Shown in pieces: positions 18,076 through 59,643 of a stretch of DNA of 64,000 bases (positions are counted from its first letter, which is position 1; every line of letters begins with the position of its first letter). Source of the stretch: Pristiophorus japonicus (lineage: Eukaryota); the NCBI RefSeq assembly GCF_044704955.1, contig NW_027251778.1:434001-498000 (forward strand), given 5' to 3'. The notes below the pieces were generated by a model. The model searched no databases, was not told where the DNA came from, and saw nothing but the letters and a program-made list of their open reading frames with translations. A program made the position numbers and the translations under genes.

Positions 18076-19345
18076 ATGCACGTTTATTTTCAAATCCTTC
18101 TAAGGCCTCCAACTTCCCTATCTCTGCAATATCCCCACCACCATCCTGCGAGAGATCTGCGCTCTTCTAATTCTGGCCTCTTGAGAATCCCCCTATTTCC
18201 ATCTCTCCACCATTGGTGCCCGTGCCTTCTATTGCCTGGGCCCCAAGCTCTGGAACTCCCTCCCTAAACCTTTCTACCTCCCTCTCTCCTCCTTCAAGAC
18301 CCTCCTTAAAACCGACCTCTTTGACAAAGCTTTTGGTCACCTTTCTTTCTTTCACTCTCTCTTTCTAACCTTCTTTGTTTCTTCCATTTACTCGATCCTT
18401 TTTTCATGTTTTAATTGTCTCTTTCTCTCATTATTTCCTTCTATCCTTCTTTCTTACTTGCTTCCATTTACTCTTTCTATCTTTCTTTCGTTCTTTCTTT
18501 CTATACTTCTTTCTACCTTCCTATCTTTCTCTCGTTCTTTCCTTCTTTCCTTCTCTCCTTCTTTCTCTCTATATTCTCCCTTCCTTTCTTTCATTCTTAA
18601 TTTTTCTGTTCACTTATAACCTTCCCTCTTTCCTACTTACTTTCTGTGTCTGTGTTTCGTTCTATCATTCTTTTTTTCATTACTTTCTTTCTGTTACTCT
18701 TTCTCTAAATCAGTTTCCCTTCCATCGAATCAAACTCTCAATGTTTCTTTAATCCTTTCTCTCCCTTTCATTGTTTATGATTATTTCCCTCTACTGCCCA
18801 TTGATGTTATTTCTTCCTCACTTTAATTCTTTCCATTTTCCTTTATTTCTCCCACTTTCAGTTCCTCTTTCTCTTTTTTACTTTCTTTTGTTCATTCTTG
18901 ATCCTATTTTACTTTTTATCCCCTCCCTTGCATTCCCGTTGGCTTCCTTTCATTTCTCATTCCACTACTTCAATTTTTATCTTTCTTTCATCCAATTCTT
19001 TATTTCCAGCTACGGTTTATTCTGTCAGCCTATCTCTCCAACTCGAGTGGATCAAATCTGATCTCTGCTGCCCGCTGCTGACTATTATGTTACATGTTCG
19101 TCCCCTTGCCGAGCGTGTCCAACTGCAGATATCGTGTACAGACACTCAGACAGACAGTCAGACAGACATGCAGATACATGGATAGATTGATATAGAGATA
19201 GATGGATAGATTGTTAATGAATATACGGATGGACGGACAGACGGATAAACAGACACAGAAGCAAACAGACAGATCTATCTCCCACAGATTTTTCCAACCA
19301 TGGGAGGGTTTGTGTCGAGCCCCTCCATCTCCCTGAGTCACTGTG

Positions 19346-20348
19346 CAGACTCCAGGCGCAGTAATACACGGCCGACTGATCCGCCCGCAGGCCGGAGGTC
19401 TCCAGGTAGAAGTGGGTGTTGTCGGGTCTCTTGGCGGTGAATCCGACCACCTCACCGGAGGGGTCGACCATTTTGGCGTAACTGGAAATGAAAAGTTTCT
19501 GAGGCTCCCGGTCAGGATGCCACCGGTACCAGTAGAAATACGAGTTAACTTCCGCTTCTGTGTAAAGACACTCGATGCTAACCGGAGTGCCCGGGGAATT
19601 GGATATGGAAGCGGGGGTCTGTTTGATCAGCACGGCCCCCACATCTGTAAAACCGAGAAAGAGAGAAGTTCAGAGACAGAGTTGAAGCCAGGGAGAAATG
19701 GCTAATAGACACCCGCCAGAGGAGGGGAGAGAGAGTGAAGGGAAGAGGGGGCAAGAGAGGCAGAGAGACAGAGCGAGATGGAGAGAGCCAGTGAAGTGGG
19801 CCAGCGGGACAGACAGAGAGAGAGAGAGGCAAAGATAGAGAGAGAATGAGATAAAGAGAGAGAGAGATAAACCGAGCGACAAACTACACATCACTCGAGA
19901 TGAGAAGGCGCACATGAAGAGNNNNNNNNNNNNNNNNNNNNNNNNNNNNNNNNNNNNNNNNNNNNNNNNNNNNNNNNNNNNNNNNNNNNNNNNNNNNNNN
20001 NNNNNNNNNNNNNNNNNNNNNNNNNNNNNNNNNNNNNNNNNNNNNNNNNNNNNNNNNNNNNNNNNNNNNAATAGAGACAGAGAGAGACACAGACAGACAG
20101 AGACAGAAGAGAGTGGCAGTGAGGGTGGGAGACAGAGAGAAGGAGACAGACAGACAGACAGAGAACACACTATAAACCGAGGGGGAGAGAATCTAGACCA
20201 GCCCGCGGTGTGAAGGGACACACGGGGAAATTAAAGTGAGGATCGCTGAGATCTCACAGCCCAGCTCCACCTTACCCGTTAACACCAGCAACACAAGCCA
20301 GAGCTGGGACATAGGCATCTCTGGGGGGAGGGAGATCCGGGGGTTCAT
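19346..20348 (-). CDS. TRBV: TRB V segment V1, family A, intact
   Basis: Leader exon 20276-20348 (MNPRISLPPEMPMSQLWLVLLVLT, gtaagg donor). V exon 19346-19644 (DVGAVLIKQTP..C..WYRW..YYCAWSL). RSS CACAGTG-23-ACACAAACC at 19307-19345. Confidence 0.93.
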
Positions 20349-20430
20349 GGTGTGCAACCTTTGAATATCTCACAGTTCTGGGCAATGTGGCATTTACTGA
20401 CCCCCTGCTCTCCAATGTTCAATGTGCGGG

Positions 20431-20503
20431 TGGGAGGGGCCAATCTCTCTTCACCAGTTCATTGGCTCCCTCATCTGGAGTGGTCTTTACCGGGGCGGGG
20501 CTA
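20431..20503 (-). promoter_or_regulatory. Family A V promoter (CCAAT boxes and GC box)
   Basis: GGGGCCAATC, ATTGG and GGGGCGGGGC lie 80-155 bp upstream of the ATG. This region is largely conserved upstream of the other family A leaders. Confidence 0.5.
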
Positions 20504-22139
20504 ACAGGGACTGAGGTTAAAGGGCGGTCCATGGACCCTTCGTCTGAGAGGGCAGTGATGGTGAAAAGAGAAGTATACTGTGAGTCTGACTCACTCTCAG
20601 GGTTTATTCAGGGAATGAGAGGTTTTAACTCTGTATATAACCAGTAAGAGAGAGATTTATCCCCACATAACAAGTTAGGCGTGGACTTTACTCTGAATGT
20701 AATAAAAATGCAGGTCTTCCTTTGCTTTTCCTTTCTTTCTAACCTTCCCTCTTTTTTTCCTTCTTTCCATCATTCGCTTTCCTTCTTTCTTTCATCCACT
20801 CCTTCTTCCCTTCGTTCTCTCTTTCTCACTTTCTCTCTTTCTTTCAGTTACACATTCTGTCCTTTCTTTTCTTTTTTCCTATCTGTATTATTTTCGTCTT
20901 TCTTTCAGGCTCTCTTTCTTTTGTTATTCTTTCTTTCTTTTCTTCTTTTCTCCTTCTTTCTTTCTTTTTTTCTTTCTTACTTTATGTCTCTCCGTCTCTC
21001 CTGTTTCTTTCTGTCTACCCTTTTTTCTTTCTTTCAGTATTTCTTTCCTCCGTTCCTTCGTTTTCTTTTGATTTATTTCCGTCTTCCAATAAATGTTTAT
21101 TATCTTCTATCTTTCCCCTTTTCTTCCCCAGTCTCACTTTCTTTCTTTCACTCTCTGTTTATACCTTTTTTCTTTCTTCCATTTACACTTTCTATACATC
21201 TTTCTTTCTGCAATTGTCTCTTTGTATCGTTCTTTCCTTCTATACTTCTTTCTTACTTTCTTTATTTCTTTCATTTACTCATTCTCTCCATTTTTAGTGA
21301 ATTAATTCATTCTCTCTTTCTATCCTTCTCTCTATCTTGCTTTCTTTCTCTCTTTCTTATCTGCTTTCCTTCTTTCTCTCTCACCTATCACTTTTTCTCT
21401 CCTTCTTATTTTACCTTTTCATTTCTAACCTTCCCTCTTTCCTACTTCATTTCTTTCTGTCCGTTTTTTCTCCTCTGTTTCGATCTATTTACATTATTTC
21501 TGTAACTCTTTCTCTAAATCTGTTTTACTTTCATCGAATCAAACTCTCAATGTTTCTTCCATCCTTTCTCTCCCTTTCAATGTTCATCATTATTTCCCTC
21601 TCCTGCCCGTTGATGTTATTTCAGCCTTTATTTCTTGCTTACGTTAATTCTCTCCCTTTTTCTTTAATTTACACATTCTCTTTCTTTCTTTCTTTCCTTT
21701 TTTCTTTCATTCATTAGTTCCTTCTATCTTTCAGGCTCTCTTTCTTTATGTGTTCTTTCTCTCTTTGTTCTTTAATTTTTCTTTCTTTTTTTTCCTTCGA
21801 TCTTTCTTTCTTTCAGACTCTCTTTCTTTCTTTCCTTCTTTGTTTCCTTCATTCTTGACCTTTTTTATTTTACTCCCCACCCTTGCATTCCTTTTCACGT
21901 CCTTTAATTTTTCAGACCGCTCCTTCAGCTTTTATCTTTCTTTCATCCAATGAAAATTACTTTATTAGAGCTATGGTTTATTCTTTCATTCCATCTCTCC
22001 AACTCGAGAGGATCAAAAGTGATCTATGCTGCCCCCTGCTGACCATTATATTACATGCTCCTCCCCTCCACGTCCAAGTCCAACGACAGGTATTGTGTAC
22101 AGGCAGAAAGACAGATAGACAGATCGATAGCTAGATAGA

Positions 22140-22147
22140 TCGATTGC

Positions 22148-22226
<79 letters not shown>
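22140..22226 (+). repeat. (GATA)n microsatellite
   Basis: Perfect agat run. Another lies at 50551-50625. Confidence 0.95.
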
Positions 22227-22227
<1 letters not shown>

Positions 22228-22573
22228 GACTCAAAGACAGACAGATAGATAGAGAGTCAGATAGACACATACCATGGGGAAATAGACATAAAAACAGAAC
22301 ATAGAAAACGAGACAGATCTATCTCAAACAGTTGGCTCCTGTCCCCTTTGAAATAGGTAGGTAGACAGATGGACAGGCAGACAAACAGACAGATGGATAG
22401 ATGGTATTGCTGTTTAGACAACCGACACACAGATAGACATTTCGACTCAGAGATAAATGGGTAAGGAGACAGAGAAACAGATGCACAGACAACGAGAATG
22501 ATCTGTCGCCAACAAGTGTTTCCTGCCATGGTGGGGTTTGTGTCGAGCCCCTCCATCTCCGTGAGTCACTGTG

Positions 22574-23378
22574 CATACTCCAGGCGCAGTAATACACGGC
22601 TGCCTGATCCGCCCGCAGGCCGGAGGTCTTCAGGATGAACTCCATGGCATTCGTTCGCTCTGCAGTAAAACCGTGCACCGTCCCCTCTGGATTGACCTGA
22701 TTGTGGCCCGTGGAGTAAAACATAAACTGCGGCTCCTTCCACGGGTCCTGTCTGTACCAGAACATGTAACCGCTACTGGTGCCCTTCACAGCACACATCA
22801 GGTCCACTCCCTCCCCGGGAAATCTGGAGACAGCGGGCGGAGTCTGGCGGATAGTCTGTGAGCTCACGCCTGGGAAAGAGATGGGGAGAGGAGGTGGTCA
22901 GTAAACAGGGNNNNNNNNNNNNNNNNNNNNNNNNNNNNNNNNNNNNNNNNNNNNNNNNNNNNNNNNNNNNNNNNNNNNNNNNNNNNNNNNNNNNNNNNNN
23001 NNNNNNNNNNNNNNNNNNNNNNNNNNNNNNNNNNNNNNNNNNNNNNNNNNNNNNNNNNNNNNNNNNNNNNNNNNNNNNNNNNNNNNNNNNNNNNNNNNNN
23101 NNNNNNNNNNNNNNNNNNNNNNNNNNNNNNNNNNNNNNNNNNNNNNNNNNNNNNNNNNNNNNNNNNNNNNNNNNNNNNNNNNNNNNNNNNNNNNNNNNNN
23201 NNNNNNNNNNNNNNNNNNNNNNNNNNNNNNNNNNNNNNNNNNNNNNNNNNNNNNNNNNNNNNNNNNNNNNNNNNNNNNNNNNNNNNNNAAAAAGTATAGA
23301 AAGAATATTATAAAGAATGATTGTTTGAAAAAGTCCCTTACGGTGGAGTAAGACCATTAGGCCCAGTAATAGATACAT
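22574..23378 (-). CDS. TRBV: TRB V segment V2, family B, intact
   Basis: Leader 23342-23378 (MYLLLGLMVLLH, gtaagg donor). V exon 22574-22869 (VSSQTIRQTP..CAVKG..WYRQ..YYCAWSM). 23-RSS at 22535-22573. The intron contains an N gap. Confidence 0.92.
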
Positions 23379-23445
23379 CTTTGACTTGAAGTTTTCCCTC
23401 AATAATGAAAGGAGCGAGAGCAGCAGAGTAGAGTCTGTGAGGGCC

Positions 23446-23782: not shown

Positions 23783-23875
23783 ACAGACACACAGACAGAG
23801 ATATCTATCTCCCACAGGTGTTTCCTGCCATGGTGGGGTTTGTGTCGAGCCCCTCCATCTCCCTGAGTCACTGTG

Positions 23876-24954
23876 CAGACTCCAGGCGCAGTAATACATG
23901 GCCGCCTGATCCGCCCGCAGGCCGGAGGTCTCCAGGTAGAAGTGGGTGTTGTCGGGTCTCCTGGCGGTGAATCCGTCCACCTCACCGGAGGGAGTGACCA
24001 TTCCAGCGTAGGTGGAATAGAAAAGGTTCTGAGGCTCCCGGTCAGGATGCCACCGGTACCAGTAGAAATAGGAGCCAGCTGTTGCTTCTGTGTAAAGGCA
24101 CTCGATGCTCACCGCAGTGCCCGGGGAATGGGATACGGAAGCGGGGGTCTGTTGGATCAGCACGGCCCCCACGTCTGTGAAACCGAGAAAGAGAGTCAGA
24201 GATAGAGATAAACCCAGGGAGAAATTGCAAAACAACACACGCCATGAAGCGGCAGAGGAGGGGAGAGAGAATGAGGGAGAGAGGGGGCGAGATAGACAGA
24301 GAGACAGAGCGAAACGGAGCGAGCGAGAGAGGGAGTGAGCGACGGAGTGAGACAGTGACACCGACAAAGAGAGCGAGGCAGAGACAGAGAGAGAATGAGA
24401 TACAGAAAGAGAGATAAACCGACCGACAATCTACACATCACTGCAGGATGAGACGGAGCACATGAGGAGAGCGAGATAAAAAAGAGAAAGGGAGAGCGAG
24501 AGAGAGAGAGAGTGAGAGAAGGACAGACAGAGAGAGAGACAGAGAGACATAGAGACGGAGAGAGAGTAAGAGAGAGAGACAAAGAGAGAATNNNNNNNNN
24601 NNNNNNNNNNNNNNNNNNNNNNNNNNNNNNNNNNNNNNNNNNNNNNNNNNNNNNNNNNNNNNNNNNNNNNNNNNNNNNNNNNNNNNNNNNNNNNNNNNNN
24701 NNNNNNNNNNNNNNNNNNNNNNNNNNNNNNNNNNNAGAGACAGAGAGGGAGACAGACAGACAGAGGACACACTATAAACCGAGGGGAGGGGGCGAAATCT
24801 AGACCAGGCCGCGGTGTGAAGGGACACACGGGGAAATTAAAGTGAGGATCGCTGAGATCTCACAGCCCAGCTCCACCTTACCCGTTAACACCAGCAACAC
24901 AAGCCAGAGCTGGGACACATGGATCTCTGGGGGGAGGGAGATCCGGGGGTTCAT
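23876..24954 (-). CDS. TRBV: TRB V segment V3, family A, intact
   Basis: Leader 24882-24954, where only the upstream ATG is in frame. V exon 23876-24174 ends YYCAWSL. 23-RSS at 23837-23875. Confidence 0.9.
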
Positions 24955-25264
24955 GGTGTGCAACCTCTGAATATCTCACAGTTCTGGGCACTGTGGCATT
25001 TACTGACCCCCTGCTCTCCAATGTTCAATGAGCGGCTGGGAGGGGCCAATCTCTCTTCACCTGTTAATTGGCTCCCACATCGGGGCTGGTCATCCCCGGG
25101 GCGGGGCTAATGGCGATTCTGGGTAATCGACGGTCCGTTTCCTCCCTTGCTGGCGGCATCTTGGTTTCTAGAAACCTGTAATAACTCGAAGGGAGTGACA
25201 AAAGGGAAGTTATAGTGTCTGCCTGACTCATTCTATATTAAACTAGTGAGTGAATAAATGGATG

Positions 25265-25962: not shown

Positions 25963-26400
25963 AAGACTCCAGCTGCAGTAATACACCCCCGAGTGCTCCG
26001 CTCGCTGGCTGGCCGTCTGCAGGTGGAAGGTGGACTGGTCGGCTCTGGAGGCGGTGAATCCGTCCACCTCTCCCGCCGGCTCGATGCTGTCGGCGTTGCC
26101 AGAGAAGAAGAGAAGCGAGAGCTCTCCGTCTGGAAGCTTGCGGTACCAGGAAAACTCTGAGCTGAAGGATCCCTCCGCAGAACAGCGGACGAGCAGCGGG
26201 GAGTGCAGGGAACTGGAGATTACAGACGGAATTTGCTGAACTTTGCCGCTTGCGACACCTGCGAATATGAGCAGAATAAGTGGGTTTATAACATACGGCC
26301 GCTGACATTGGGAGACAAACTACGCCCATGCAATTGCAGAGAGAGACTTACTGTGCAACAGCAGCGCGGAAACAAGGCACTGCGTTAAATGCATTTTCAT
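25963..26400 (-). CDS. TRBV: TRB V segment V4, family C, intact frame
   Basis: Leader 26352-26400 (MKMHLTQCLVSALLLH, gtaagt donor). V exon 25963-26258 (VASGKVQQIP..RCSAEG..WYRK..YYCSWSL) has no stops. RSS is CACAGTG-22-ACACAAACC at 25925-25962. The ORF track only partly captures it. Confidence 0.87.
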
Positions 26401-28847
26401 TGCGAGTTTGCAAAAAAGAAATAGAGCGAGGAATTTGCAAGAATCTGCACACTGGCGCCCACGCAAGTTTCTGTCTCTGCAATTCGGTGTGATTGGCAGC
26501 TCCAGAACGTATTCCTTGCAGTGTGATGACAACTGTGCAGTGCCAACCCCGCCCCTCCCAGCTTCTGCAAACTCTTACTTAAGAATATAACATAAGAACA
26601 CAAGAAATAGGAGCAGGAGTGGCCATACTGCCTCTCGAGGCTGCCTCGCCATTTAATACGATCTTTACTAATCTGATCATGGACTCAGCTCCACTTACCT
26701 GTCCACTCCGCTTAATTCCTTATTCTCTTATCGCTTAAGGAAATGTCATCACTCTGTCTTAAATATATTCAATGAACCAGCTTCCACAGCTCTCTGAGGC
26801 AGCGACTACCATAGATGTACAACCCTCTGAGAGAAGAAATTCCTCCTCATCTCAGTTTTAAATGAGCGGCCCCTTATTCTAAGATCATGCCCCCTAGTTC
26901 TAGTCTCCCCCATAAGTGGAATTATCCTCTCTGCATCCACCTTTTCAAGCCCCATCTTAATCTTATATGTTCTTCTGAATTTCAATGAGCAGAGGCCAAA
27001 CCTACTCAATCTTTCTTCATAAGTCAACCCCCTCATCCCCGCAATCAACCTAGTGAACCTTCTCTGAACTGCCTCCAAAGCAAGTGTATCCCTTCTTAAA
27101 TATGGAAACCAAAACTTCACGCAGTACTGCAGGTGTGGCCTCACCAATACACTGTATAGCTGTAGCAAGACTTCCCTGTTTGTATACTCCATCCCCTTTG
27201 CAATAAACTCCAAGATACCATTGGCCTTCCTGATCACTTGCTGTACGTGTGCACTATCCTTTGGTGTTTCATGCACAAGTGCCCCCAGGTCCGGCTGTAC
27301 TGCAGCACTTTGCAAATTTTCACCATTTTAATAATAACATGCTTTTTCAATTTTTTTCGGCCAAATTGCAAGACCTCACACTTTCCAACATTATCCGCCA
27401 GATTTTTTATGTCCTCTTCATATATTGCATTTCCTCCCACCTTCATATCATCATCAAACTTGTCTACGAATTAAAGGGTTACACTTTTGGCGGGGCTGCA
27501 CTCCGATATTCTTTGACAAACACTTCGAAAGGCACCGACAATCTGTCAGACAAGTGGGCTAACGGTTTGCAGCAGTAACTCGAGCACCTGCTCGGTGGGG
27601 CAGCTGTCCCCGTGAGAAACGGATCTGCAGCGCCATGTCGCGTCTGCCCAGCGAGCAACACCCGTCACACGGCTCAGGGTTCTCAGATGAACTGTCTCAT
27701 GTCTGTGTGGTGTTGTTCCTCTTATAGCGGTGAATGTGAAGGGCAGGGTTCAAAAAGGTGCATATATTAATTTAAGGTTTTGATAGAGTAACGAAGGAGA
27801 AACGGGATCCAGTGGCAGGAGAGTCGATAAAGAAAGGAGACAGATTTAGGTAATTTGCTCAAGAACCAGAGCCGGAGGTGAGTAAAAGCTTTCTCCTCAG
27901 TGAATCATTGTGATCTGGAACGCGCTGCCTGAAAGGGTGCTGGAAGCACACTCAATAGTAACTTTTAAACTGGAGTGGGATAAATATATGAAGGGGATAT
28001 TTTCAATGCTGTGCGGAACGGGTCAGGGGATTGGGACTAATTAGATAGCACAGACACGAAGGAGCGAATCGCCTCCTTCTGTAATGTAACCTTCTATGAT
28101 TCTATGGAAATCAGCTCTTCTCGTTGCGATTGCGATAGGCAAGTAACAGGAGTGATAAACACCTCCTCTGACAGTATGAGCCTGGAAACTATTCACTGGC
28201 ATAATCGGGAGCTAGCCGCAATCCCGACCCTCTTCCTGCATTTGTTCCTTCAATATTAGCATTCTCCCATTTAACAAATGTCATAATCGTTGCGGACACA
28301 CAGAGTATATTTTATGATTAGCACATCCGAAAGATTGATACATCATTTTTAATATTGAATAATATGTTGAAGTAATATCAAGTGAAAGGGAATAAGAAGA
28401 TGTAACAATGTAAATAAAAATAAGTTCCAAAATATATCATTTATTTAAATGGTGNNNNNNNNNNNNNNNNNNNNNNNNNNNNNNNNNNNNNNNNNNNNNN
28501 NNNNNNNNNNNNNNNNNNNNNNNNNNNNNNNNNNNNNNNNNNNNNNNNNNNNNNNNNNNNNNNNNNNNNNNNNNNNNNNNNNNNNNNNNNNNNNNNNNNN
28601 NNNNNNNNNNNNNNNNNNNNNNNNNNNNNNNNNNNNNNNNNNNNNNNNNNNNNNNNNNNAATATACGAATAGATGGATAGATCTTTATTCAGACACGCAG
28701 ACAGACAGATACTCAGATCGATAAATGGCTAAAGAGACACATAGAGACTCAGATAAACATGCAGACAGGTACAGATCTATCTCCCACAGGTGTTTCCTGC
28801 CATGGCGGGGTTTGTGTCGAGTCCCTCCATCTCCCTGAGTCACTGTG

Positions 28848-29453
28848 CAGACTCCAGGCGCAGTAATACACGGCCGATTGATCAACCCGCAGGCCGGAGG
28901 TCTCCAGGTAGAAGTGGGTGTTGTCGGGTCTCTTGGCAGTGAACCCCTCCACCTTACCGGAGGGAGTGACTGTTCCGCTGACGGTGGAATAGAAAAGGTT
29001 CTGAGGCTCCCGGTCAGGGTGCCAGCGGTACCAGTAGAAACGGGAGCTAATTGTTGCTTCTGTGTAAAGGCACTCGATGCGCACTGGAGTACCCGGAGAA
29101 TTGGATATGGAAGCGGGGGACTGTTTGATCAGCACGGCCCCCACATCTGTAAAACCAAGAAAGAGAGTTAGAGATAGCGATAAACCGAGAGAGAAATGTT
29201 ATATAAACACCCGCCATGCATGAACAGAGGAGGGGAGAGAGAGTGGGGGAGAGAGGTGGCGAGAGATGCAGAGAGATAGAACGAGACGGAGAGAGCGAGA
29301 GAGTGAGGGAGGGAGTGAGAGCGGGACGCACAGAGAGAGAGAGGCCAAGACAGAGAGAGAATGAGATGTAGAAAGAGAGATAAACCGAGCGAAAATCTAC
29401 AAACACCGGAGGATGAGAAGGAGCACATGAGTAGAGAGAGATATTAACGAGAA

Positions 29454-32454: not shown

Positions 32455-33189
32455 TCCCATCAGCAGTGGCACAGAAATACAGCGCCAGGTCGCTGGGTTC
32501 TACTGTCTCGATCTTCAGTGTGGATTTCTTATTTTCCACCGTCCTGGTGATGGTGAACCCGCTCTCAAAACCCTTTTCATATCGAGCATCGCTGCTGAGG
32601 TAAATAGACCCGATTAACGCCAATCCTCCGCCGGCGGACTGACGATACCACAGCATGTTATTGCTAACTGTCCCGTTCTGAAAACAGTTCAGCTCGGCGG
32701 ATTCTCGCTGGCGTACGCTGAGCGAGCGGGGCCACTGATACGGCACCTCGCCCCGGGAACCACCTGGAAACAGAAATTCGGGGCAACAGAATTAGCATCG
32801 TTGAAGTGAAACTCTCAGTGATACATGTTGGCGTTGGACCGATTTATCGATAGATATTTAGCCTTTCCCGAATTCGCAACAAGCAGCAGAAACAATGCAA
32901 CTGTAAAATAAAACAGAGGACTTTGCAAAGTTCAATCAATTATTAAACAATGGAAGTTATATTCATAGCATTTCAGGTTCAAAATAGAGCAGATTATTGA
33001 TTCAGTTATCTGACGTTAATTAATTGATTGTTTATCTATTAGTCCACTGTATCTCACCGACACGGGACATTATTTTGATCAGTTAAAAACCCTTTCAGTT
33101 GAGAAAGTATATCACAGTAATTGCAAGGTGAATTTTAACATACTCAGCGTCAGAAAGAACCCAGCAGTAAGGAGGAAAAGGAATCGCAT
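32455..33189 (-). CDS. TRBV: TRB V segment V6, family D, intact
   Basis: Leader 33144-33189 (MRFLFLLTAGFFLTL, gtatgt donor). V exon 32455-32763 (GSRGEVPYQWP..CFQNG..WYRQ..YFCATADG). RSS CACAGCG-23-ACAAAAACC at 32416-32454. Confidence 0.92.
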
Positions 33190-36200: not shown

Positions 36201-37461
36201 AGGTGCTAACATTAATTTCAAGATTTTGACAGAGTAACTATGGAGAAACTGGACACAATGGCAGAAGGGTCGATAAAGAAAGGAGAGAGAATTAAGGAAA
36301 AATTGCTGAAGAACCGGAGCCGCTGGTGAGTAAAAGCTTTCTCCTCAGTGAATTATTGTGATCTGGAACGCGCTGCCTGAAAGGGTGCTGGAAGCAGATT
36401 CAATAGTAACTTTAAACTGGGTGGGCTAAATATATGAAGGGTATATTTTCAGTGCTGTGGGGAACGGGTCAGGGGAATTGGACTAATTGGATAGCACAGA
36501 CACGATGGACCGAATGGCCTCCTTCTGTGCTGTATCGTTCTAGGATTCTATAAAAATCAGCTCTTCTCGTTGCTATTGCGATAGGGCAAGTAACAGGAAT
36601 GATAAAGATCTCCTCTGACTGTATGTGCCTGGGAACTATTTACTGGTATAATCGGGATCGAGGCATAATTCATTCCCTTACACCTGTATTCGTTCTTTCA
36701 ACACTAGCATTCTCCCATTGACCACAGCTCATAATCTGTTGTTGACGCATAGAGTATTTCTTAATTTGCAGCACATCAGAGACATTGATATGGCATTTTT
36801 AGTAATGAGTAATCTGTTGAAGTAATCTCAAGTGAAAGAGAATAAGAAGATGCAACAATGCAAATAAAAAGGAAATCCAAAATATATCATTTATTTAAAT
36901 GATACGACTTAAAGAGTAGAGGNNNNNNNNNNNNNNNNNNNNNNNNNNNNNNNNNNNNNNNNNNNNNNNNNNNNNNNNNNNNNNNNNNNNNNNNNNNNNN
37001 NNNNNNNNNNNNNNNNNNNNNNNNNNNNNNNNNNNNNNNNNNNNNNNNNNNNNNNNNNNNNNNNNNNNNNNNNNNNNNNNNNNNNNNNNNNNNNNNNNNN
37101 NNNNNNNNNNNNNNNNNNNNNNNNNNNNNNNNNNNNNNNNNNNNNNNNNNNNNNNNNNNNNNNNNNNNNNNNNNNNNNNNNNNNNNNNNNNNATAGATGG
37201 ATATCTCTGTGATGGATGTGATTAATGAATGTATAGATAGACAGACAGAGAGTCAGTCAGAGACCGACAGACAGACAGACAGAGAGACAATTAGACAGAT
37301 GGATAGACCGACATCTAGATAGATAAAGAGGCACAGAGATAAATGGGTGAAGAGACACGCAAACAGACTCAGTTTAACACACAGACAGATCTATCTCCCA
37401 CAGGTGTTTGCTGCCATGGTAGGTTTTGTGTCGAGCCCCTCCATCTCCCTGAGTCACTATG

Positions 37462-38499
37462 CAGACTCGAGGAGCAGTAATACATGGCCACCTGATCTGC
37501 CCGCAGGCCTGAGGTCTCCAGGTAGAAGTGGGTGTTGTTGGGTCTCCAGGCGGTGAATCCTTCCACCTCACTGGAGGGATCGAACATTTTAGCGTAGGTG
37601 GAATGGAAAAGGTTCTGAAGCTCCCGGTCAGGATGCCACCGGTACCAGGTGAAATAGGAGCCAGCTGTTGCTTCTGTGTAAAGGCAGTCGATGCCAACCG
37701 GAGTGCCTGGGGAATTGGATATGGAAGCGGGGGTCTGTTGGATCAGCACTGCCCCCACATCTGTAAAACCGAGAAAGAGAGAGAGTTAGAGAGAGAGATA
37801 AACCCAGGGAGAAATTGCATACAGACACCCACCTTGAAGGGGCACAGGAGAGGAGAGAGAGTGAGGGAGAGAAGAGGCGAGTGAGGCAGAGCGACAGAGC
37901 GAGACGGAGGGAGCGTGAGGGAGGGAGTGAGACAGCGGGACGGAAAGAGAGAGAGAGGAAAACAGAGAGAGGAGATACAGAGAGAGAGAGTTAAGCCGAG
38001 CGACAATCTATCCATCACCAGAGGATGAGAAGGAGCACATGTGGAAAGAGAGATAGAAACGAGAAAAAGTGAGAGAGAAAGAGAGAGACAGAGACAAGGG
38101 AAATATAATTAGCCAGTCAGGCAGTAAGACTCACAGAGAGAGGGGGAGAGACAGACAGAGAGAGAGTGGCAGTGAGGTAGGGAGGCACACAGACAGAGAG
38201 AGAGAGTTGGATACAGAGAGAGGGAGACAGGCAGACATACAGAAAGGGAGAGAGTTGGTGGCAGTGAGGGTGGGAGACAGAGAGAAGGAGTGAGATAGAC
38301 AGACAGAGAGAGAGGACACACTATAGCCCGAGGGGGAGAGAATCTGGACCAGCCCGCGGTGTGAAGGGATACACGGGGAAATTAAAGTGAGGATCGCTGA
38401 GATCTCACAGCCCAGCTCCACCTGACCCGTTAACACCAGCAACACAAGCCAGAGCTGGGACACAGGCATCTCTGGGGGAAGGGAGATCTGGGGGTTCAT
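37462..38499 (-). pseudogene. TRBV: TRB V segment V7, family A, open frame but defective RSS
   Basis: Leader 38427-38499 has a weaker gtcagg donor. V exon 37462-37760 is open and ends YYCSSSL. The heptamer is CATAGTG (37455-37461), which breaks the essential CAC. Confidence 0.8.
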
Positions 38500-39314: not shown

Positions 39315-39750
39315 AAGACTCCTGCTGCAGTCATACACCCTCGAGTGCTCCGCTCGTAAATGGCTGTCTGCAGGTGGAAGGTGAACTGGTCGGCTCTGGA
39401 GGCGGGGAATCCGTCCACCTCTGCTGCTGGCTCGATGCTGTCGACGTTGCGAGAGAAGAAAAGCAGCGGGAGCTCTCGGTCTGGGAACTGGCGGTACCAG
39501 GAAAACCCTGAGTTGAAGAATCCCACCGCAGAACAGCTGACGAGCAGCGGGGAGTGCAGGGAACTGGAGATTGCAGCCGGAATTTGCAGAACTTTGCCGC
39601 TTGCGACACCTGCGATTATGAGCAGAAGAAGTGGGTTTTAACACAGGGCCGCTGACATTGTGAACCAAACTGCGACCAAGCAATTGCGGAGAGAGACTTA
39701 CTGTGCAACAGCAGTGCGGAAACAAGGCACCGCGTTAAATGCATTTTCAT
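39315..39750 (-). pseudogene. TRBV: TRB V segment V8, family C pseudogene
   Basis: Paralogue of V4. Leader 39702-39750. V exon 39315-39609 is 295 nt versus 296 in V4, with a -1 frameshift in FR3 near 39360, and YYC has become YDC. RSS at 39276-39314. Confidence 0.87.
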
Positions 39751-42398
39751 TGAGAGCTTGCAGAAGAGAAATAGAGCGTGGAATTTGCAAGATTCTGCAC
39801 ACTGGCTCCCATGCAAGAGTTTCTGTCTCTGCAATTCGGTGTGATTGACAGCTGCAGAACCCATCCCTTAAAGCCTGATTGACAAATGTGCACGACAAGC
39901 CCCGCCCCTCCCAGCTTCTGCAGGCTCTTACATAAGAATATAACATACGAACACAAGAAATAGGAGCAGGAGTTGGCCATACTCCTCCTCGAGGCTCCTC
40001 CGCCATTTAATACAATCTTTACTGATCTGATCATGGACTCAGCTCCACTAACCTGCCCGGTCCGCTTAACTCCTAATTCCCTTACCGATTAAGGAACCAC
40101 CTCTCTCTGTCTTAAATATATTCAATGAAACTGCTTCCACAGCTGTCTGAGGCAGCGACTACCATAGATTTACAACATACTGAGGGAAGAAATTCCTCCT
40201 CATCTCCTCATCTTAGAATAATGGGCGGCCCATTATTCTAAGATCATGCGCTCGAGTTCTGGTCTCCCTATTCAGTGGAATTATCCTCTCTGCATCCACC
40301 TTGTCGAGCCCCCTGGTAATCTTATATGTTTTGATAACACCACCTATCATTCTTCTGGAATTCAATGAGTAGAGGCCGAACCTACTCAATCTTCCTTCAT
40401 AAGTCAATACCCTCATGCTCGGAATCAACCGAGTGATCCTTCTCTGAACTGCCTCCAAAGCAAGTATATTCTTTCTTAAATATGCAAACCAAAATTTCAC
40501 GCAGTACTACAGGTGTGGCCTCACCAACACACGGTATAGCTGTGCAAGAATTCCCTGCTTGTATACTCCATCCCCTTTGCAATTAACGCCAAGATACCAT
40601 TGGCCTTCCTGATCACTTGCTGTACGTGCGCACTATCCTTTTGTGTTTCATGCACAAGTGCCCCCAGGTCCGGCTGTACTGCCGCACTTTGCAAATTTTC
40701 AACATTTTAATAATAACTTTCTCTTTGAATTTTTTTCGGCCAAATTGCAAGACCTCACACTTTCCAACATTATACGCCATCTGTCCGATTTTGGCCCACT
40801 CACTTCCCCTGTCTATGTCCTTTTGCAGATTTTTATTTCCTCCTCATACATTGCATTTCCTCCCACCTTCATATCATCATCAAACTTGGCTACGAATTAA
40901 AGGGTTACACTTTTGGCGGGGCTGCTTCAGAAGGCACCGAGAATCTGTCAGACAAGTGGGCAAACGGTTTGCAGCAGAAACTCGAGCACCTGCTCGGGGG
41001 TGGCAGCTGTCCTCCTGAGAAACGGATCGGCAGCGCCATCTCGCGTCTGCCCAGCGAGCAACACCCGTCACACGGCTCAAGGTTCTCAGATTAACTGTCT
41101 CATGTCTGTATGGTGCTGTTCCGCTTATAGCGGTGAATGTGAAGAGCAGGGTTCAAAAAGGTGCTTACATTTATTTAAGGTTTTGATAGAGTAACTAAGG
41201 AGAAACAGGACCCAGTGGTAGGAGAGACGATAAAGAAAGGAGAAAGATTTGAGGTAATTTGCTAAAGAACCAGAGCCGGAGGTGAGTAAAAGCTTTCACC
41301 TCAGTGAATTATTGTGATCTGGAACGCGTTGCTTGAAAGGGTGCTGGAAGCAGATTCAATAGTAACTTTTAAACTGGAGTTGGATAAATATATGAAGGGT
41401 ATATTTTCAGTGCTGTGGGGAACGGGTCAGGGGACTGGGACTAATTGGATAGCACAGACACGAAGGAGCGAATCGCCTTATTCTGTAATGTATCGTTCTA
41501 TGATTCTATGATAATCAGCTCTTCTCGTTGCAATTGCGATAGGGCAAGTAACAGGAGGCAGAAACGTCTCCTCTGACAGTATGAGCCTGGGAACTATTCA
41601 CTGGTATAATCAGGAGCTACGCGCAATTCCGACCCTCTTCCTGCATTCGTTCCTTCAACGCAAGCATTCTCCCATTTAACCGATCTTATAATCTGTTGCA
41701 GACACACAGAGTATATTTAATGATTAGCACATCCGAAACATTGATACGTCATTGTTAATAATGAATAATATGTTGAAGTAATCTCAAGTGAAAGAGAATA
41801 AGAAGATCTAACAATGTAAATAAAAATAAAATCCAAAATATATCATTTATTTAAATNNNNNNNNNNNNNNNNNNNNNNNNNNNNNNNNNNNNNNNNNNNN
41901 NNNNNNNNNNNNNNNNNNNNNNNNNNNNNNNNNNNNNNNNNNNNNNNNNNNNNNNNNNNNNNNNNNNNNNNNNNNNNNNNNNNNNNNNNNNNNNNNNNNN
42001 NNNNNNNNNNNNNNNNNNNNNNNNNNNNNNNNNNNNNNNNNNNNNNNNNNNNNNNNNNNNNNNNNNNNNNNNNNNNNNNNNNNNNNNNNNNNNNNNNNNN
42101 NNNNNNNNNNNNNNNNNNNNNNNNNNNNNNNNNNNNNNNNNNNNNNNNNNNNNNNNNNNNNNNNNNNNNNNNNNNNNNNNNNNNNNNNNNNNNNNNNNNN
42201 NNNNNNNNNNNNNATACGAATAGATGGATAGATCTGTATTCAGACACGCAGACAGATAGATACTCATATAGATAAATGGCTAAAGAGACACATAGAGACT
42301 CAGATAAACATGCAGACAGGTACAGATCTATCTCCCACAGGTGTTTCCTGCCATGGTGGGGTTTGTGTCGAGCCTCTCCATCTCCCTGAGTCACTGTG

Positions 42399-43076
42399 CA
42401 GACTCCAGGCGCAGTAATACACGGCCGCCTGATCCGCACGCAGGCTGGAGGTCTCCAGGTAGAAGTGGGTGTTGTCGGGTCTCCTGGCGGTGAATCCGTC
42501 CACTTCACCGGAGGGAGTGACCGTTCCACTGACGGTGGAATAGAAAAGGTTCTGAGGCTCCCGGTCAGGGTGCCACCGGTACCAGGTGAAAGTGGAGCTA
42601 ACTGTTGCTTCTGTGTAAAGGCATTCGATGCTAACCGGGGCGTTCGGGGAATTGGATATGGATATGGGGGACTGTTTGATCAGCACGGCCCCCACATCTG
42701 TAAAAACGACAAAGAGACTAGATTTAGAGATAGAGATAAACCGAGAGAGAAATTTTATATAAACATCCGCCATGAATGAACAGAGGAGGGGAGAGAGAGT
42801 GAGGGAGAGAGGTGGCGAGAGATGCAGAGAGACAGAGCGAGATGAAGAGAGCGAGAGAGAGAGGGAGGGAGTGAGAGAGGGACGGACAGAGAGAGAGAGG
42901 CAAAGACAGAGACAGAATGAGATATCAAAAGAGAGATAAACCGAGCGACAATCAACAAACATCGGAGGATGAGAAGGAGCACATGAGTAGTGAGAGATAG
43001 AAACGAGAAAGTGAGCGAGACAGAGAGAGAAATAGAAACCCGAAGGTGAGAGAGACAGAAAGAGAGAGTCGGAGAG

Positions 43077-46109: not shown

Positions 46110-46841
46110 TCCCATCAGCAGTGGCACAGAAATACAGCGCCAGGTCGCTCGGTTCTACTGTCTCGATCTTCAGTGTGGATATCTTATTTTCCAACGTCCT
46201 GGTGATGGTGAACCCGCTCTCAAATCCCTTTTCATATCGAGCATCGCTGCTGAGGTAAATAGACCCGATTAACGCCAGTCCTCCGCCGGCGGACTGACGA
46301 TACCACAGCATGTTTTCGCGAACCGTCCCGTTCTGAAAACAGTTCAGCTCGGCGGATCCTCGCTGGCGTACGCTGAGCGAGCGGGGCCACTGATACGGCA
46401 CCTCGCCCCGGGAACCACCTGGAAACAGAAATTCGGGGCAACAGAATTAGCATCGTTAAAGTGAAACTCTCAGTGATACGTGTTGGGGTTGGGCCGATTT
46501 ATCGATAGATATTTAGCCTTTGCCCGAATTCCCAACAAGCAGCAGAAACAATGCAACTGTAAAATAAAACAGAGGACTTTGCAAAGTTCAATCAATTATT
46601 AAACAGTGGAAGTTATATTCATAGCATTTCAGGTTAAACATATAGCAGATTATTGAGTTATCTGACGTTAATTAATTGATTGCTTATCTATTAGACCACC
46701 GTATTTCACCACCACAGGACATTATTTTGATCACTGAATAACCCTTTCGGTTGAGCAATTATAGCACTGTGATTGAAAGGTGGATCTTAACATACTCAGC
46801 GTCAGAAAGAACCCAGCAGTGAGGAGGAAATGGAATCGCAT
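46110..46841 (-). CDS. TRBV: TRB V segment V10, family D, intact
   Basis: Leader 46796-46841 (MRFHFLLTAGFFLTL). V exon 46110-46418 ends YFCATADG. RSS CACAGCG-23-ACAAAAACC at 46071-46109. Confidence 0.92.
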
Positions 46842-50626: not shown

Positions 50627-50814
50627 TCAGACAGTCAGTCAGAGAGACCGACAAACAGACAGACAGATAGATAGATAAAGAGACATAGAGATAAATGGGT
50701 AAAGAGACACACAAACAGACTCAGATAAACAGACTAGAGATATCTGTCTCCCACAGGTGTTTCCTGCCATGGTGGGGTTTGTGTCGAGCCTCTCCATCTC
50801 CCTGAGTCACTGTG

Positions 50815-51457
50815 CAGACTCCAGGCGCAGTAATACACATCCGCCTGATCCGCCCGCAGGTTGGAGGTCTCCAGGTAGAAGTGGGTGTTGTCGGGACTCC
50901 TGGCGGTGAATCCGTCCACCTCACCGGAGGGAGTGACCGTTCCAGCGTAGGAATAGAAAAGGTTCTGAGGTTCCCGATCTGGATGCCACCGGTACCAGTA
51001 GAAACGGGAGGCAGAATCTGCTTCTGTGTAAAGGCACTCGATGCTAACCGGGGTGTGCGGGGAATTGGAAATGGAAGCAGGAGACTGTTGGATCAGCACA
51101 GCCCCCACATCTGTAAAACCGAGAAAGAGAGAGAGTTAGAGATAGAGATAAATCCAGTGAGATATTGCATATAAACATCTGCCATGAGAGGCAGAGGAGG
51201 GGAGATAGAGTGATGGAGAGACGGGGCTAGCGAGGCAGAGAGGCAGAGCGAGAAGGAGAGAGCGATCGAGACTGAGGGAGGGAGTGAGACAGCGAGACCG
51301 ACAGAGAGAAAGGTATAGACTGAGAGAGAGTGAGATACAGAGATAGAGAGATTAACCGAGCGACAATCTACACATCATCGGACGTTGAGAAGGCGTACAT
51401 GAGGAGTGAGCCATAGAGAGGAGAAAGTGAGAGGGACAGAGAGAGAGAGCGACAGAT

Positions 51458-51492
<35 letters not shown>

Positions 51493-56450: not shown

Positions 56451-56602
56451 TATGTGCTCTTTCCTACATTATTTCCACCTTTCTTGCTCCTTTTTAATCT
56501 AAACTTCCACATTGCAGACAACTATTCATATCTATCTCCCACAGGTGTTTCCTGCCATGGTGGGGTTTGTGTCGAGCCCCTCCTTCTCCCTGCGACACTG
56601 TG

Positions 56603-57102
56603 AAGACTCCAGGCGCAGTAATGCACGGTCGCCTGATCCGCCCGCAGGCCGGATAAACTACAGGTTAAAATCGTTGCCTTTCGGTCTCTCGCCAGTAAAA
56701 TGGTCCACCGGCCCCTCTGGATTCACACTTTATACAGTTGTGGAGATGAACATTGACAGCGGCTCCTTCCCGTGGTCCTGTCTGTACCAATACATGTAAG
56801 GGGTGCTTGCTCCCTCCACAGTGCATTTCAATTGCACTCGCTCCCCGGGATATCTGGAGACAGCGGCCGGAGTCTGGCGGATAGTCTGTGAGCTCACATC
56901 TTGGAAAGAGACAGGGAGAGGAGGCGGTCAGTAAACAGGGACATTCTGGGGAATGGGAAAGAGAGAGAGAAAGAAAGAAAGAAAGAAAGAAGGAAAGGAA
57001 GTAAGAAAGAAAGAAACAAGGTAAAAGGTTACTAAGAAGACTCATATTTTGAAAAAGTGCCTTACGCTGAAACAAGATCATTAGTCCCAGTAACTGATAC
57101 AT
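56603..57102 (-). pseudogene. TRBV: TRB V segment V12, family B pseudogene
   Basis: Leader 57066-57102 is intact. V exon 56603-56899 has TAA in CDR2 (ACT GTA TAA), TAG in FR3 (AAC CTG TAG) and a +1 frameshift. RSS at 56564-56602 is intact. Confidence 0.9.
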
Positions 57103-58114
57103 CTTTAACGTGATGTTTTCCCTCAATAATGAAAGGAGCAAGAGCAGGAGCGAAGAGTCTGTGAGAAGCCAAATTCGCTCTTTTCAAATCATTGAGGAAA
57201 ATATGAAGAATCTGAGGAAGTGATGCAGCTTTGCATTGTCCGTCCCCTCCCTCTGATTGGCAGACAATGCACCTCCCTCGCTGATGGCAGACAAAGCCCC
57301 TCCCTCTCTGATTGATAGAAAAAGCCCCTCCCTCTCTGATTGACAGAAAACGCCCCTCCCTCTCTGATTGACAGAAAAAGCCCCTCCCCCTGGTTAACAG
57401 ACAAAGCCCCTCCCTCCCTGATTGTCAGCACCACACCTCCCTTTCTGATTGGCCATGATTGGAGCACATGGGAAGTAGGAGCGAAATGTGGAGGAACAAA
57501 TCTATTTCGAAGACCATGTCCACAAATCATTACCAATGAATAGATACTAACGGGTGAAAGGGGCTGGACTACAGAGAGAAAGGTTTGATTCTTCAGTTGC
57601 ACAGACCCTCAGTCTGAATTATTCTGGAGAACTGTCTTCAGTTCTGGGCACCGCACTGTTAGACTTACATTGGTTCAACACAGATTCAACAGAATGACAG
57701 CAGGGCCGGGGGGGGGGGTTAAATGAAGAGCACAGGTTGCACCAACGTGGATTGTATTTACATTGACTACAGGAGATTCGGTGGTGTGCTCTTTGAGGTT
57801 CGTAAAGCATTAAAAGTGGTTGATATGTTAGATAGAGAGAATCAATTTCCTCCAGTCAGGAACTCCAGAAGGATGGGTAAGAGATTAAAGTTAGATCCAG
57901 CCAGTTCAGGCATTGCATCAGAAACCACTTCTTCACACAAAGAGTAGTGGGAATGTGAAACTCTCTCCTCCAATTGCTGTTGAGGCTGGGGGTAAATTGC
58001 AGGCTTCAAAACAGAGATTGGTTCAGTTTTGGGTGAGTATTGGTGTCCCATGATATGGGTCAAAGGACATAAATAATGATCGAACATGATATAACTGATT
58101 GGGGCAGCAGATTA

Positions 58115-58590
58115 GAGGGGCTGAATGCCCTCCTGCTGTTCCTTTGTCATCGGCTCGAGCGGCTGAATGGCCTCCTGTTCCTGTGTAACAGGGTGCAGGG
58201 GCTGATTGGGCCACCTCCTATTCTTGTGTAACCGGCGCAAGTGTCTGGTAGGCCTCCCATTCCTGTCTAAAAAGTTCGAGCGGCTGAATGGGCTTCTTGT
58301 TCCATTGTAACAGGCTCGACGGGCGGAATGGCTTTCCTGATCCTCGGTAAATGTCTCCAGGAGTGAGTGGCCGCCAGTTCCTGTGTAACACGCTCGAGGG
58401 GCTGAATGTGCCCCATCCTTCTCCTGTGCAACAGGCTCGAGGGGCTGAATAGCAATCGTTCGGCTCCTGTGTAAATAGCTCGAGGAGCTGAGAGGCCGCA
58501 TGTTTCTGTGTAACAGGCCCGAGGGGCTGAATGTGCCTCCTGTTCCTGTATAATATGCTCGAGGGGCTGAATACCCTCCACTGTTCCTGT
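58115..58590 (+). repeat. Degenerate 41-44-bp minisatellite
   Basis: Same unit as 17536-18075. Confidence 0.85.
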
Positions 58591-58594
58591 GTAG

Positions 58595-59140
58595 TTTTGG
58601 TCACCTTACTTAAGGAAGGATATACTAGCTTTGGAGGGGGTACAGACACGATTCACTAGGCTGATTCCGGAGATGACGGGTTTACCTTATGATGATAGAT
58701 TGAGTAGACTGGGTCTTCACTCGTTGTAGTTCAAAAGGATGAGCGGTGATTTGTAGAAACATTTAAAATAATGAAAGGGATAGACAAGATAGAAGCAGAG
58801 AGGTTGTTTCCACTGGTCGGGGAGACTAGAACTAGGGGGCACTGCCTCGAATTATGGGGGAGCCAATTTAAAACCGAGTTGAGAAGGAATTTGTTCTACC
58901 AGAGTGTTGTGAATCTGTGGAATTCTCTGCCCAAGGAAGCAGTTGAGGCTAACTCATTGAATGTATTCAAATCACAGAAAGATAGATTTTTAACCAATAA
59001 GGTAATTAAGGGTTACAGGGAGAGGGCGGGTAAGTGGAGCTGAGTCCACGGCCAGATCAGCCATTATCTTTTTGAATGGCGGAGCAGGCTCGAGGGGCAC
59101 GATGGCCTACTCCTGTTCCTAATTCTTATGTTCTTTTGTT
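58595..59140 (+). mobile_element. CR1-type LINE 3' end
   Basis: Closely matches 55910-56450. Confidence 0.85.
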
Positions 59141-59231
59141 ATGTTTTAAAATAGACAGGGTTCACCATCCACAGGTGTTTCCTGCATTGTGGGGTTTGTG
59201 TCGAGCCCCTCCATCTCCCTGAGTCACTGTG

Positions 59232-59643
59232 CAGACTCCAGGCGCAGTAATACACGGCCGCCTGATCCGCCCGCAGGCCGGAGGACTTCAGGTTAAACTC
59301 CTTGCCATTCGGTCGCTCGGCAGAAAAACCATCCACCGGCAACTCTGGATCCACAATATTGGTGATCGCAGAGATAAACATGGACTGCGGCCCCTTCCCC
59401 AGGTCCTGTCTGTACCAGTACATGTAAGGGTTGCTTGCTCCCTCTACAGTGCATTTCAATTCCACTCCTTCCCCGGGAAATCTGGAGACAGCAGCCGGAA
59501 TCTGGTGAATAGTCTGTGAGCTCACATCTGAGATGGGGAGAGGAGCTGGTCAGTAAAAAGGAACATTCTGGGGAAAGAGAGAAACTCAGAAAGAAAGATA
59601 GAAAAGAAAGAGAGGAAGATGGAAGGAAAGAAAAAAAGAAGCA

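Follow-up and report, generated by a model that had tools for sequence, protein, structure and literature searches.

Gene content of the locus

The window, i.e. the whole 64,000-nucleotide stretch analysed, is part of a T-cell receptor beta (TRB) locus of Pristiophorus japonicus, which lies on contig C1166. All four proteins scanned contain a V-set domain (Pfam), and an RSS with a 23-nucleotide spacer follows. Between the V arrays of the locus there are two D segments, each with a 5′ 12-RSS and a 3′ 23-RSS, as well as six distinct J-like matches with a 12-RSS and the FGxG motif. D2 and J2 are the D and J inside the window: the D element with its RSSs spans 12614..12694 on the minus strand, the D letters (12666-12653) standing between 12-RSS and 23-RSS, and the J segment NAEQYFGNGTRLTVL with its 12-RSS occupies 12337..12411 (minus strand). 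The D segments have a GGGACA core, which we take to be typical of D-beta. The constant-region Ig exon C2 (3920..4243, minus strand) is 69% identical to a Scyliorhinus chain bearing a TCR-type transmembrane segment, and the C1 exon, which is 37% identical to C2, has matches at 1e-16 to TCR beta chains of solved structure, ranking after several Ig constant matches. Two transmembrane exons carry the motif K-S-I-x-Y, presumably a mark of TRB. A second complete D-J-C unit and about 45 V-like genes are inverted at this TRB locus, and a sister TRB-like locus on contig C11 holds both C types. In one contig from a public run (X5), an A-type V is joined, apparently in frame when read by hand, to D2-like and J2 letters. 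Its A body with a D-Q tail, at 4 substitutions in 225 aligned nucleotides, continues into the D-J junction; this run may or may not be independent of the assembly.

The comparisons below cover 33 V genes of family A and 38 of family B from the locus (32 A and 37 B for identity per bin). Within the window, a block of 115 bases that comprises the FR3 tail, the 23-RSS and the near flank is present in nine copies, six in A and three in B genes, all on the minus strand. Those of family A lie at 19284..19398 (V gene 19346-19642), 23814..23928 (V3, 23876-24172, leader ATG apparently lost), 28786..28900 (28848-29144), 37400..37514 (37462-37758, heptamer CATAGTG), 42337..42451 (42399-42695) and 50753..50867 (50815-51108), and each is followed by a flank that we call type Y. 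The family-B copies are found at 22512..22626 (V gene 22574-22867, Y-like flank, A-type base at -54), at 56541..56655 in a pseudogene with stops and a frameshift (56603-56897, Y flank), and at 59170..59284 (V13, 59232-59525, leader apparently broken), where a flank of the other type, X, begins and is then interrupted by an unrelated insertion. Two further families of the window do not share the block. The family-C gene (25963..26256, minus strand; frameshifted second copy at 39315-39610) belongs to the same clan and ends in CSWSL, its identity to the block being 73%, and the tail and spacer of the family-D gene (32456..32752, minus strand; second copy at 46111-46407) are unrelated to it.

Extent of the shared block

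A sequence-only reading had proposed that a near-identical cassette is common to otherwise divergent families. Its example, V3 (23815-23927) against V13 (59169-59283), indeed aligns over 113 bases with 110 matches, 2 mismatches and 1 gap. Of the motifs that it named, the exact spacer is present in 4 of the 9 window copies and the exact 21-nucleotide FR3 motif in 5. The leaders of A and B are unlike by eye, as had been stated. Over all 33 A and 38 B genes the net A-B divergence amounts to 0.37 in the V body and 0.003 from -53 to +59 around the heptamer, or, by part, to 0.368 in FR1-CDR2, 0.305 in FR3a, 0.004 in the tail, 0.001 in the spacer and 0.006 in the near flank. In bins of 15 nucleotides, A-B identity is 0.29-0.73 up to -61 and 0.88-0.96 from -45 to +59, where it equals the identity within families. 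The majority sequences of A and B show no difference from -53 to +62, and all 89 family-diagnostic sites are located at -54 or further 5′, none 3′ of it. The breakpoint at -54/-53 is thus sharp, and it is also seen in synonymous divergence, as the sequence-only reading had anticipated: at four-fold degenerate sites the A-B difference is 0.67 upstream and 0.105 in the tail. Nevertheless the copies carry private changes: over 113 nucleotides, A copies depart from the joint majority at 4.0 positions on average and B copies at 6.3.

Five B genes have A-type bases at -57 and -54, and the four tested do not form a clade (AU p 3e-8). L-E-T/S occurs in B relatives of other sharks as well; this A-type edge in B may therefore be ancestral variation of B.

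When spacer and intron diversity are compared, the spacer shows a clear dip in A (0.048 against 0.182) and B (0.092 against 0.227), whereas no clear dip exists in the control families E, F and G (21, 10 and 6 genes; 0.168 against 0.159, 0.118 against 0.160 and 0.143 against 0.085). A mutational cold spot is unsupported: in 19 recent twin pairs the block diverges by 0.036 and FR2, FR3a and the flank by 0.040-0.041, so that the block is not a marked cold spot, albeit introns and FR1 diverge faster (0.07-0.08).

Phylogeny of V body, cassette and flanks

The V-body tree unites A in a single clade (support 100%). For the same family the cassette tree needs 15 label changes, of which starred branches force at least 3, and some cassettes are the same in A and B. 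The 5′ and 3′ trees are hence incongruent, and the congruence that would have spoken against homogenisation is absent. With the 115 cassette columns alone, the AU test does not reject monophyly of A (p 0.31); on the flank trees it is weakly rejected (AU p 0.044, 0.047 and 0.030). These trees are star-like with short inner branches (X flank), their starred branches force 1 change only, and the family labels are still clustered (7 changes versus 13.8 when shuffled). On the long X flank, A is one clade in 0 of 200 bootstrap trees. The search for tracts that had been suggested, carried out as a GENECONV-like permutation scan of 28 X-type genes, yielded no significant one (best global p 0.135; flank only 0.19). 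Minor alleles of the X flank are common to both families at 90 of 152, compared with 98.5 ± 8.3 under random labels.

Both flank types stand behind both families (A-X 20, A-Y 13, B-X 21, B-Y 11; B with other flanks 6). The 115-base block has its 3′ limit where X and Y part. Among X-flank genes the two families are homologous for at least 600 further bases, with a net A-B divergence of 0.002-0.021 to about +545, and the earlier claim that the likeness ends about 25 bp past the nonamer is thereby overturned for these genes. Mapped on the 5′ tree of A, the flank type requires 8 switches, 3 of them forced (AU p 0.001), and on the B tree 6 switches, 4 forced (AU p 0.0003). For the G/T state at -30, the B body tree requires 9 changes, 4 of them forced (AU p 2.5e-60). 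This scatter of flank type, -30 and edge states within families could also follow from one import and subsequent exchange within the family. We considered Y as an insertion into X and rejected it, as a BLAST search of the locus showed that the X majority sequence does not resume right behind Y genes.

The sister locus and other species as outgroups

On C11, all 26 B genes have an X-like flank. The sole A pseudogene has a Y-like flank with a score of 69 versus a shuffle maximum of 33, letter shuffles not modelling the simple repeats of Y. A derived post-nonamer motif, which includes an indel, is present in 69 of 71 genes here (33/33 A, 36/38 B), but in just 2 of 26 C11 B genes and not in the C11 A pseudogene (0/1); 25 of the 27 C11 genes keep the ancestral motif. 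It is important to note that the A outgroup is one degraded pseudogene, whose motif call rests on 2 versus 3 edits. Its state at -30 was dropped, since a deletion makes the position unreadable. In the V body, B genes of C1166 are nearer to C11 B (net 0.061) than to A (0.357), whereas in the block they are nearer to A (0.003) than to C11 B (0.037).

Among the C11 B genes, 20 of 26 heptamers lack CAC, 18 of these reading CGC, and only 9 of 26 genes are free of stops in the last 288 nucleotides. Yet in the 20 dead-heptamer genes the diversity is 0.107 in the block versus 0.233 in the frameworks (permutation p < 1/20000), and, for non-coding positions, 0.109 inside the block versus 0.284 in the flank. 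This trough spans about -40 to +60, and selection cannot easily explain its persistence. The scattering of CAC among the dead heptamers (5 changes) was set aside as evidence, because CpG decay explains it.

In other sharks, A-family relatives end N-H-S-like, while 31 of 33 A genes here end in D-Q as B does; all five named shark A relatives have N at the site in question, and run contigs from two other organisms read N-H-S, too. A protein search with a B gene gave no match at 1e-10 among its single candidate; B relatives were obtained by alignment searches. Conservation of CAWS and of some of the spacer extends over sharks, rays, sturgeon and turtle. In other sharks and rays this V clan shares CAWS, spacer and post-nonamer stretch, an old likeness that the sequence-only reading overlooked and that would have supplied seed homology. 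By eye, the read-through peptides of other sharks (PKG.RK-like) fit the C11 form of the motif. The states on C11 (B with X, A with Y, ancestral motif) together with the N-H-S-like tails of the A relatives indicate cross-family exchange after the locus duplication, and at least two such exchanges are required.

Evolution of the block

Two marks of concerted evolution are present at this locus: a breakpoint with incongruent trees, and derived variants that are specific to the locus or lineage and common to paralogues. The block of A and B was probably homogenised by repeated germline non-allelic recombination, that is, gene conversion as well as crossovers, and repeated exchange between the two families is likely. 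Of the recurrence already proposed from the sequence, the cross-family exchange itself stands, with at least two events; recurrence is moderately shown, given the cassette AU value, the weak flank values and the scan. A and B would have belonged to an old clan ending in CAWS, whose members already resembled each other in FR3 tail, spacer and post-nonamer stretch, which could seed mispairing. In this lineage the ancestral N-H-S tail of A was then presumably replaced by the D-Q tail of B, with loss of a predicted N-glycosylation sequon. Once the locus had duplicated, exchange of the block may have continued among about 70 gene copies arranged in tandem and inverted arrays. Its tracts would end at -54, upstream of which the two bodies differ by about 50%, and near +62, the point at which X and Y part. 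Crossovers within the block would have turned native A-Y and B-X genes into A-X and B-Y genes. As a predicted consequence, two families with different CDR1 and CDR2 would use a single standard CDR3 anchor and RSS.

Fewer events, namely two or three one-off exchanges just before a burst of gene copying (A gaining the B tail with X, B gaining Y) and later selection on the CDR3 anchor and RSS, are a rather unlikely explanation. They would fit the star-like X-flank tree with its short inner branches, the outcome of the tract scan, the weak AU values and the conservation of spacer and post-nonamer stretch in other sharks and rays, as well as the influence of spacer sequence on RSS efficiency (PMC2193808). 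However, the trough persists in the 20 C11 genes without CAC, which come from a largely stop-interrupted set; the spacer dip of A and B has no clear counterpart in E, F and G; and no bootstrap tree unites A on the long X flank. That no exchange took place, the likeness being due to purifying selection that preserved a tail inherited by both families or to an assembly artefact collapsing repeats, is very improbable. The four-fold sites and the private differences among copies argue against it, and the locus-specific derived motif with an indel, common to both families, contradicts it, even though CAWS and part of the spacer are widely conserved and C1166 is a separate 1.25-Mb contig. The X5 contig, from a run possibly not independent of the assembly, likewise joins an A body to a D-Q tail.

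It is also unlikely that the exchange was triggered by candidate germline RAG nicks at the heptamer, with tracts centred on the cut and CGC overwriting cuttable heptamers under relaxed selection. Both edges of the block are ends of ancestral homology, and its near symmetry about the cut (-53 to +62) therefore needs no such trigger, although it would agree with one, as would the C11 trough and the 20 of 26 C11 heptamers without CAC. Families E, F and G, with intact RSSs, have no clean trough, in contrast to A, B and C11 B, and the dead allele is equally explained by a single CGC ancestor or by GC-biased conversion. On the other hand, RAG-like activity in shark germ cells has been argued (PMC2193156, as far as the accessible text goes), and homologous recombination in a reporter is supported by RAG nickases as well as by a nick-only RSS (PMC6101574, likewise in part). 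In its widest form, which is unlikely too, the V(D)J signal would be a germline recombination hotspot of sharks, at which candidate RAG-nick tracts of about 115 bases give unrelated V bodies a standard CDR3 anchor and RSS and spread uncuttable heptamers through a selection-freed locus; if true, this would be a hotspot paradox for antigen-receptor genes. With its dead heptamers, the sister locus offers a natural control for telling conversion from selection, and through it the germline RAG question becomes testable.

Comparison with known systems

The usual view of TCR V families is that they evolve by birth and death, the RSS travelling with the gene. Under the preferred reading of repeated germline exchange, FR3 tail, RSS and flank form a module of their own here, which moves between two old families. 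V usage, as far as it is set by RSS strength, would thus become equal despite distinct CDR1 and CDR2, and one of the two families probably lost its predicted FR3 glycosylation sequon as a passenger. In practice, trees, primers and short-read V assignment that rely on 3′ ends fail at this locus. Our literature search found no paper describing this sharing of a block across families; an earlier description is possible.

Judged by the accessible parts of the sources, the locus resembles vertebrate TRB with 3′ inverted TRBV (PMC11754216) in its 23-RSS V, 12/23 D with GGGACA core, FGxG J, TCR-beta-like C and V inverted 3′ of C. It differs in that a whole second D-J-C with the V-like array is inverted, in the low identity of the C exons and in the sister locus, and tail sharing across families, seen here, is not mentioned in the accessible part of that account. 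In the discussion of birth-and-death versus concerted evolution of TCR V genes (10.1101/2024.09.05.611428, seen in part), the V bodies described here likewise represent separate, duplicating and decaying families, but one sub-gene block is concerted across two of them whose identity is otherwise about 50%. The inverted duplications of avian IGH (10.64898/2026.09.05.749481, in the portion available) have similar inverted V arrays, many pseudogenes and conversion among V copies. There, however, the process is somatic and diversifies one functional V in B cells, whereas here it would be germline, homogenising, in TRB, and limited to FR3 tail, RSS and flank. Shark UrIg2 (PMC12227049, from an excerpt) is also a case of species-specific germline homogenisation of Ig-superfamily repeats by gene conversion; it concerns whole constant-type domains of one non-rearranging gene rather than an RSS-centred block across V families. 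Finally, germline-joined shark Ig genes, in what is accessible of PMC2193156, share with our locus a germline change at RSS-flanked segments. While those RAG-type joins delete the RSS, here it is kept and copied.

Two V gene families share a block around the recombination signal

Contig C1166 yielded 35 matches to TRBV family A and 39 to family B; with three truncated ones that lack the 3′ end set aside, the analysis covers 33 A and 38 B genes. All signed positions are counted from the first heptamer base (position 0). The window holds nine copies of the block, six in A and three in B genes. The sequence-only reading had noted that an A gene (V3) and a B gene (V13) are nearly identical from the FR3 tail through the RSS into the flank despite unlike bodies, also at synonymous sites, and all of this was borne out. 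V3 and V13 agree at 110 of 113 bases. Net A-B divergence on C1166 is 0.368 across FR1-CDR2 and 0.305 over the first stretch of FR3, but falls to 0.004 over the final 53 bases of the exon, 0.001 across the spacer and 0.006 for the near flank. None of the 89 A/B diagnostic sites falls 3′ of -54, and the four-fold A-B difference is 0.67 upstream vs 0.105 within the block. Family C belongs to the same clan but lacks the shared block (63-73% identity).

By eye, the V3 leader (window 24914) is without the ATG present in five sister A leaders, and the V13 leader (window about 59760-59790) has lost its ATG, contains a stop and has no GT donor; judged from their leaders, both genes look like pseudogenes. 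An apparent second kind of cross-family chimera is found at C1166:370056-370238 (L020), where a family-E V body carries a family-F tail and RSS via an apparent deletion.

Larger shared regions overlap in the block

On its 5′ side the block is bounded by the divergence of the A and B bodies, and it ends near +62, where two unrelated flanks, X and Y, start. Both flanks follow both families (A-X 20, A-Y 13, B-X 21, B-Y 11; four of the six other B flanks align with Y), and to account for all four combinations, two or more exchanges between the families are required. The earlier claim that sharing stops about 25 bp past the nonamer did not hold, as X-type genes stay alike for at least 600 bases (n = 37, four genes with insertions left out): net A-B divergence is 0.002-0.021 to about +545, with one bin of 0.051 beyond. 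Because X and Y both follow both families and X sharing runs on, the block is simply the part that these longer shared stretches have in common. The far end of the X flank is a 43-bp tandem repeat; 43-bp arrays and 38-bp arrays in opposite orientations occur at window 877-1370, 10101-11650, 17492-18049 and 61157-61797.

Locus identity and layout

Within the 5.9-Gb genome, the region analysed (C1166:64001-688000) around the window (G000:C1166:434001-498000) comprises 130 V-like matches, on the plus strand at 133-375 kb and on the minus strand at 453-593 kb. Between these arrays sit two D-J-C units, tail-to-tail, the second within the window (D segment 12666-12653, J segment 12383-12337, C exon 4243-3920). 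A V-set domain is present in 4/4 window V exons scanned, and the nearest named relatives of the window V exons are shark proteins (64% identity), which makes a shark the probable source. The locus is identified as TRB by its D cores, its 12/23 signals, its J motifs, matches to solved TCR beta chains and transmembrane exons.

The C exons of the two units (G000:C1166:387800-446700; window 3920-12694; L014-L018) are only 37% identical. For both C types a closer relative exists in another shark (P0019, P0022), so the duplication of the units looks old. The C exons are far apart in sequence, while the V arrays share inverted blocks up to 10 kb long at 85-97% identity. The two arrays (122-294 kb and 464-610 kb) are inverted copies of each other in patchwork form, the longest block reaching 10.3 kb at 96.7% identity; they may reflect arm-to-arm exchange or a recent inverted duplication. 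At 324-352 kb (L003/L023-L025 region) an 8.3-kb unit with family E and F V genes is repeated in tandem in nearly identical copies, through either very recent expansion or duplication in the assembly. Many half-length B-protein matches, covering the 5′ or the 3′ half, lie on a further contig of chromosome scale (G000:C9:201-228 Mb) and on small contigs C1008, C3827 and C3678; they may be orphon V fragments or another locus.

Direction of exchange

Judged by its V and C genes, contig C11 carries a second TRB-like locus of about 470 kb with both C types, one of them 79% identical to the window's C; here the C types lie in opposite orientation with V arrays facing (G000:C11:25.99-26.47 Mb, L057-L080). 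The 240 kb analysed yielded 26 B genes, many with stops, and one degraded A gene. Since all 26 B genes have an X-like flank and the A gene a Y-like one, A-Y and B-X are probably the native combinations. One post-nonamer motif occurs in 24/26 C11 B genes and the C11 A gene, and an alternative, separated by substitutions and an indel, in 33/33 A and 36/38 B genes on C1166. The C1166 motif is the derived form, because the C11 form is the one that read-through peptides from Heterodontus, Chiloscyllium and Hypanus genes match (by eye).

In the V body, C1166-B genes are at a net distance of 0.061 from C11-B and 0.357 from A; in the block they are at 0.003 from A and 0.037 from C11-B. In the FR3 tail, N-H-S/T or N-K-S is present in 5/5 named shark A relatives, and N-H-S was read in contigs from two other coded organisms; D-Q occupies the same site in 31/33 C1166 A genes. 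Since shark A relatives are N-type, C11 B genes have D-Q and two ray genes of the clan have D-Q or E-Q, A likely acquired its tail from B.

One exchange or many

Recurrent exchange, as proposed from the sequence alone, is likely, with evidence on both sides. In its favour, X and Y switch eight times on the 5′ tree of A and six times on that of B, with monophyly rejected (p 0.001 for A; 0.0003 for B, 36/38 genes used), and the -30 state switches nine times on the B tree. Flank alleles, after removal of nine near-twins, are shared across families in 90/152 cases, indistinguishable from random labels (98.5 +/- 8.3). A-type bases at -57 and -54 occur in five B genes, one with a twin that does not have them. 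Against it, a GENECONV-like scan of X-type genes gave no significant tract, and flank trees are star-like, with A monophyly rejected at p 0.044, 0.047 and 0.030 only. On the cassette-only tree A monophyly was not rejected (p 0.31). L-E-T/S in B genes of other sharks also counts against repetition, and within-family exchange could have spread a single import.

Selection, conversion and mechanism

The spacer is old, and spacer sequence influences RSS efficiency (PMC2193808, in excerpt). In A and B, spacer diversity is far under intron diversity, with no clear such gap in three control families. CAC has been lost in 20/26 C11 B genes, a loss that abolishes cleavage; in these genes the block still shows low diversity (0.107) compared with the frameworks (0.233, p < 1/20000) and the flank (0.284). 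Both results favour the proposed homogenisation by gene conversion or crossover, which is a simpler reading than selection. In 19 recent twin pairs, block divergence (0.036) is similar to FR2, FR3a and flank and under intron and FR1. As to artefact, block copies carry private differences, and a contig from public sequencing run X5, possibly not independent of this assembly, joins an A body to a D-Q tail followed by D2-like and J2 letters, in frame by hand reading. Selection or artefact alone is very improbable.

The exchanges were probably ordinary non-allelic homologous recombination: some 70 copies, arrayed both in tandem and in inverted orientation, would recombine with one another, and exchange would be limited where homology stops. 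It is unlikely that a few exchange events were followed by a duplication burst. A RAG nick as trigger would fit the symmetry of the block about the cut site, the way dead heptamers have spread at C11, RAG-like activity in the shark germline (PMC2193156, in excerpt) and recombination started by nicks at RSSs (PMC6101574, in excerpt), but is disfavoured by the control families and appears quite unlikely.

Relation to known systems

In the literature covered, mostly non-subscription, we found neither an RSS-centred block common to different V families nor this layout of a shark TRB locus described. Inverted TRBV genes at the 3′ end are found widely (PMC11754216), and TCR V genes are usually modelled as evolving by birth-and-death (10.1101/2024.09.05.611428). 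In sharks, Ig-family repeats are reported to undergo germline conversion (PMC12227049), and for avian IGH a link between inversions and somatic conversion is reported (bioRxiv 10.64898/2026.09.05.749481). The shared block is real, and the process that probably underlies it is a known one.
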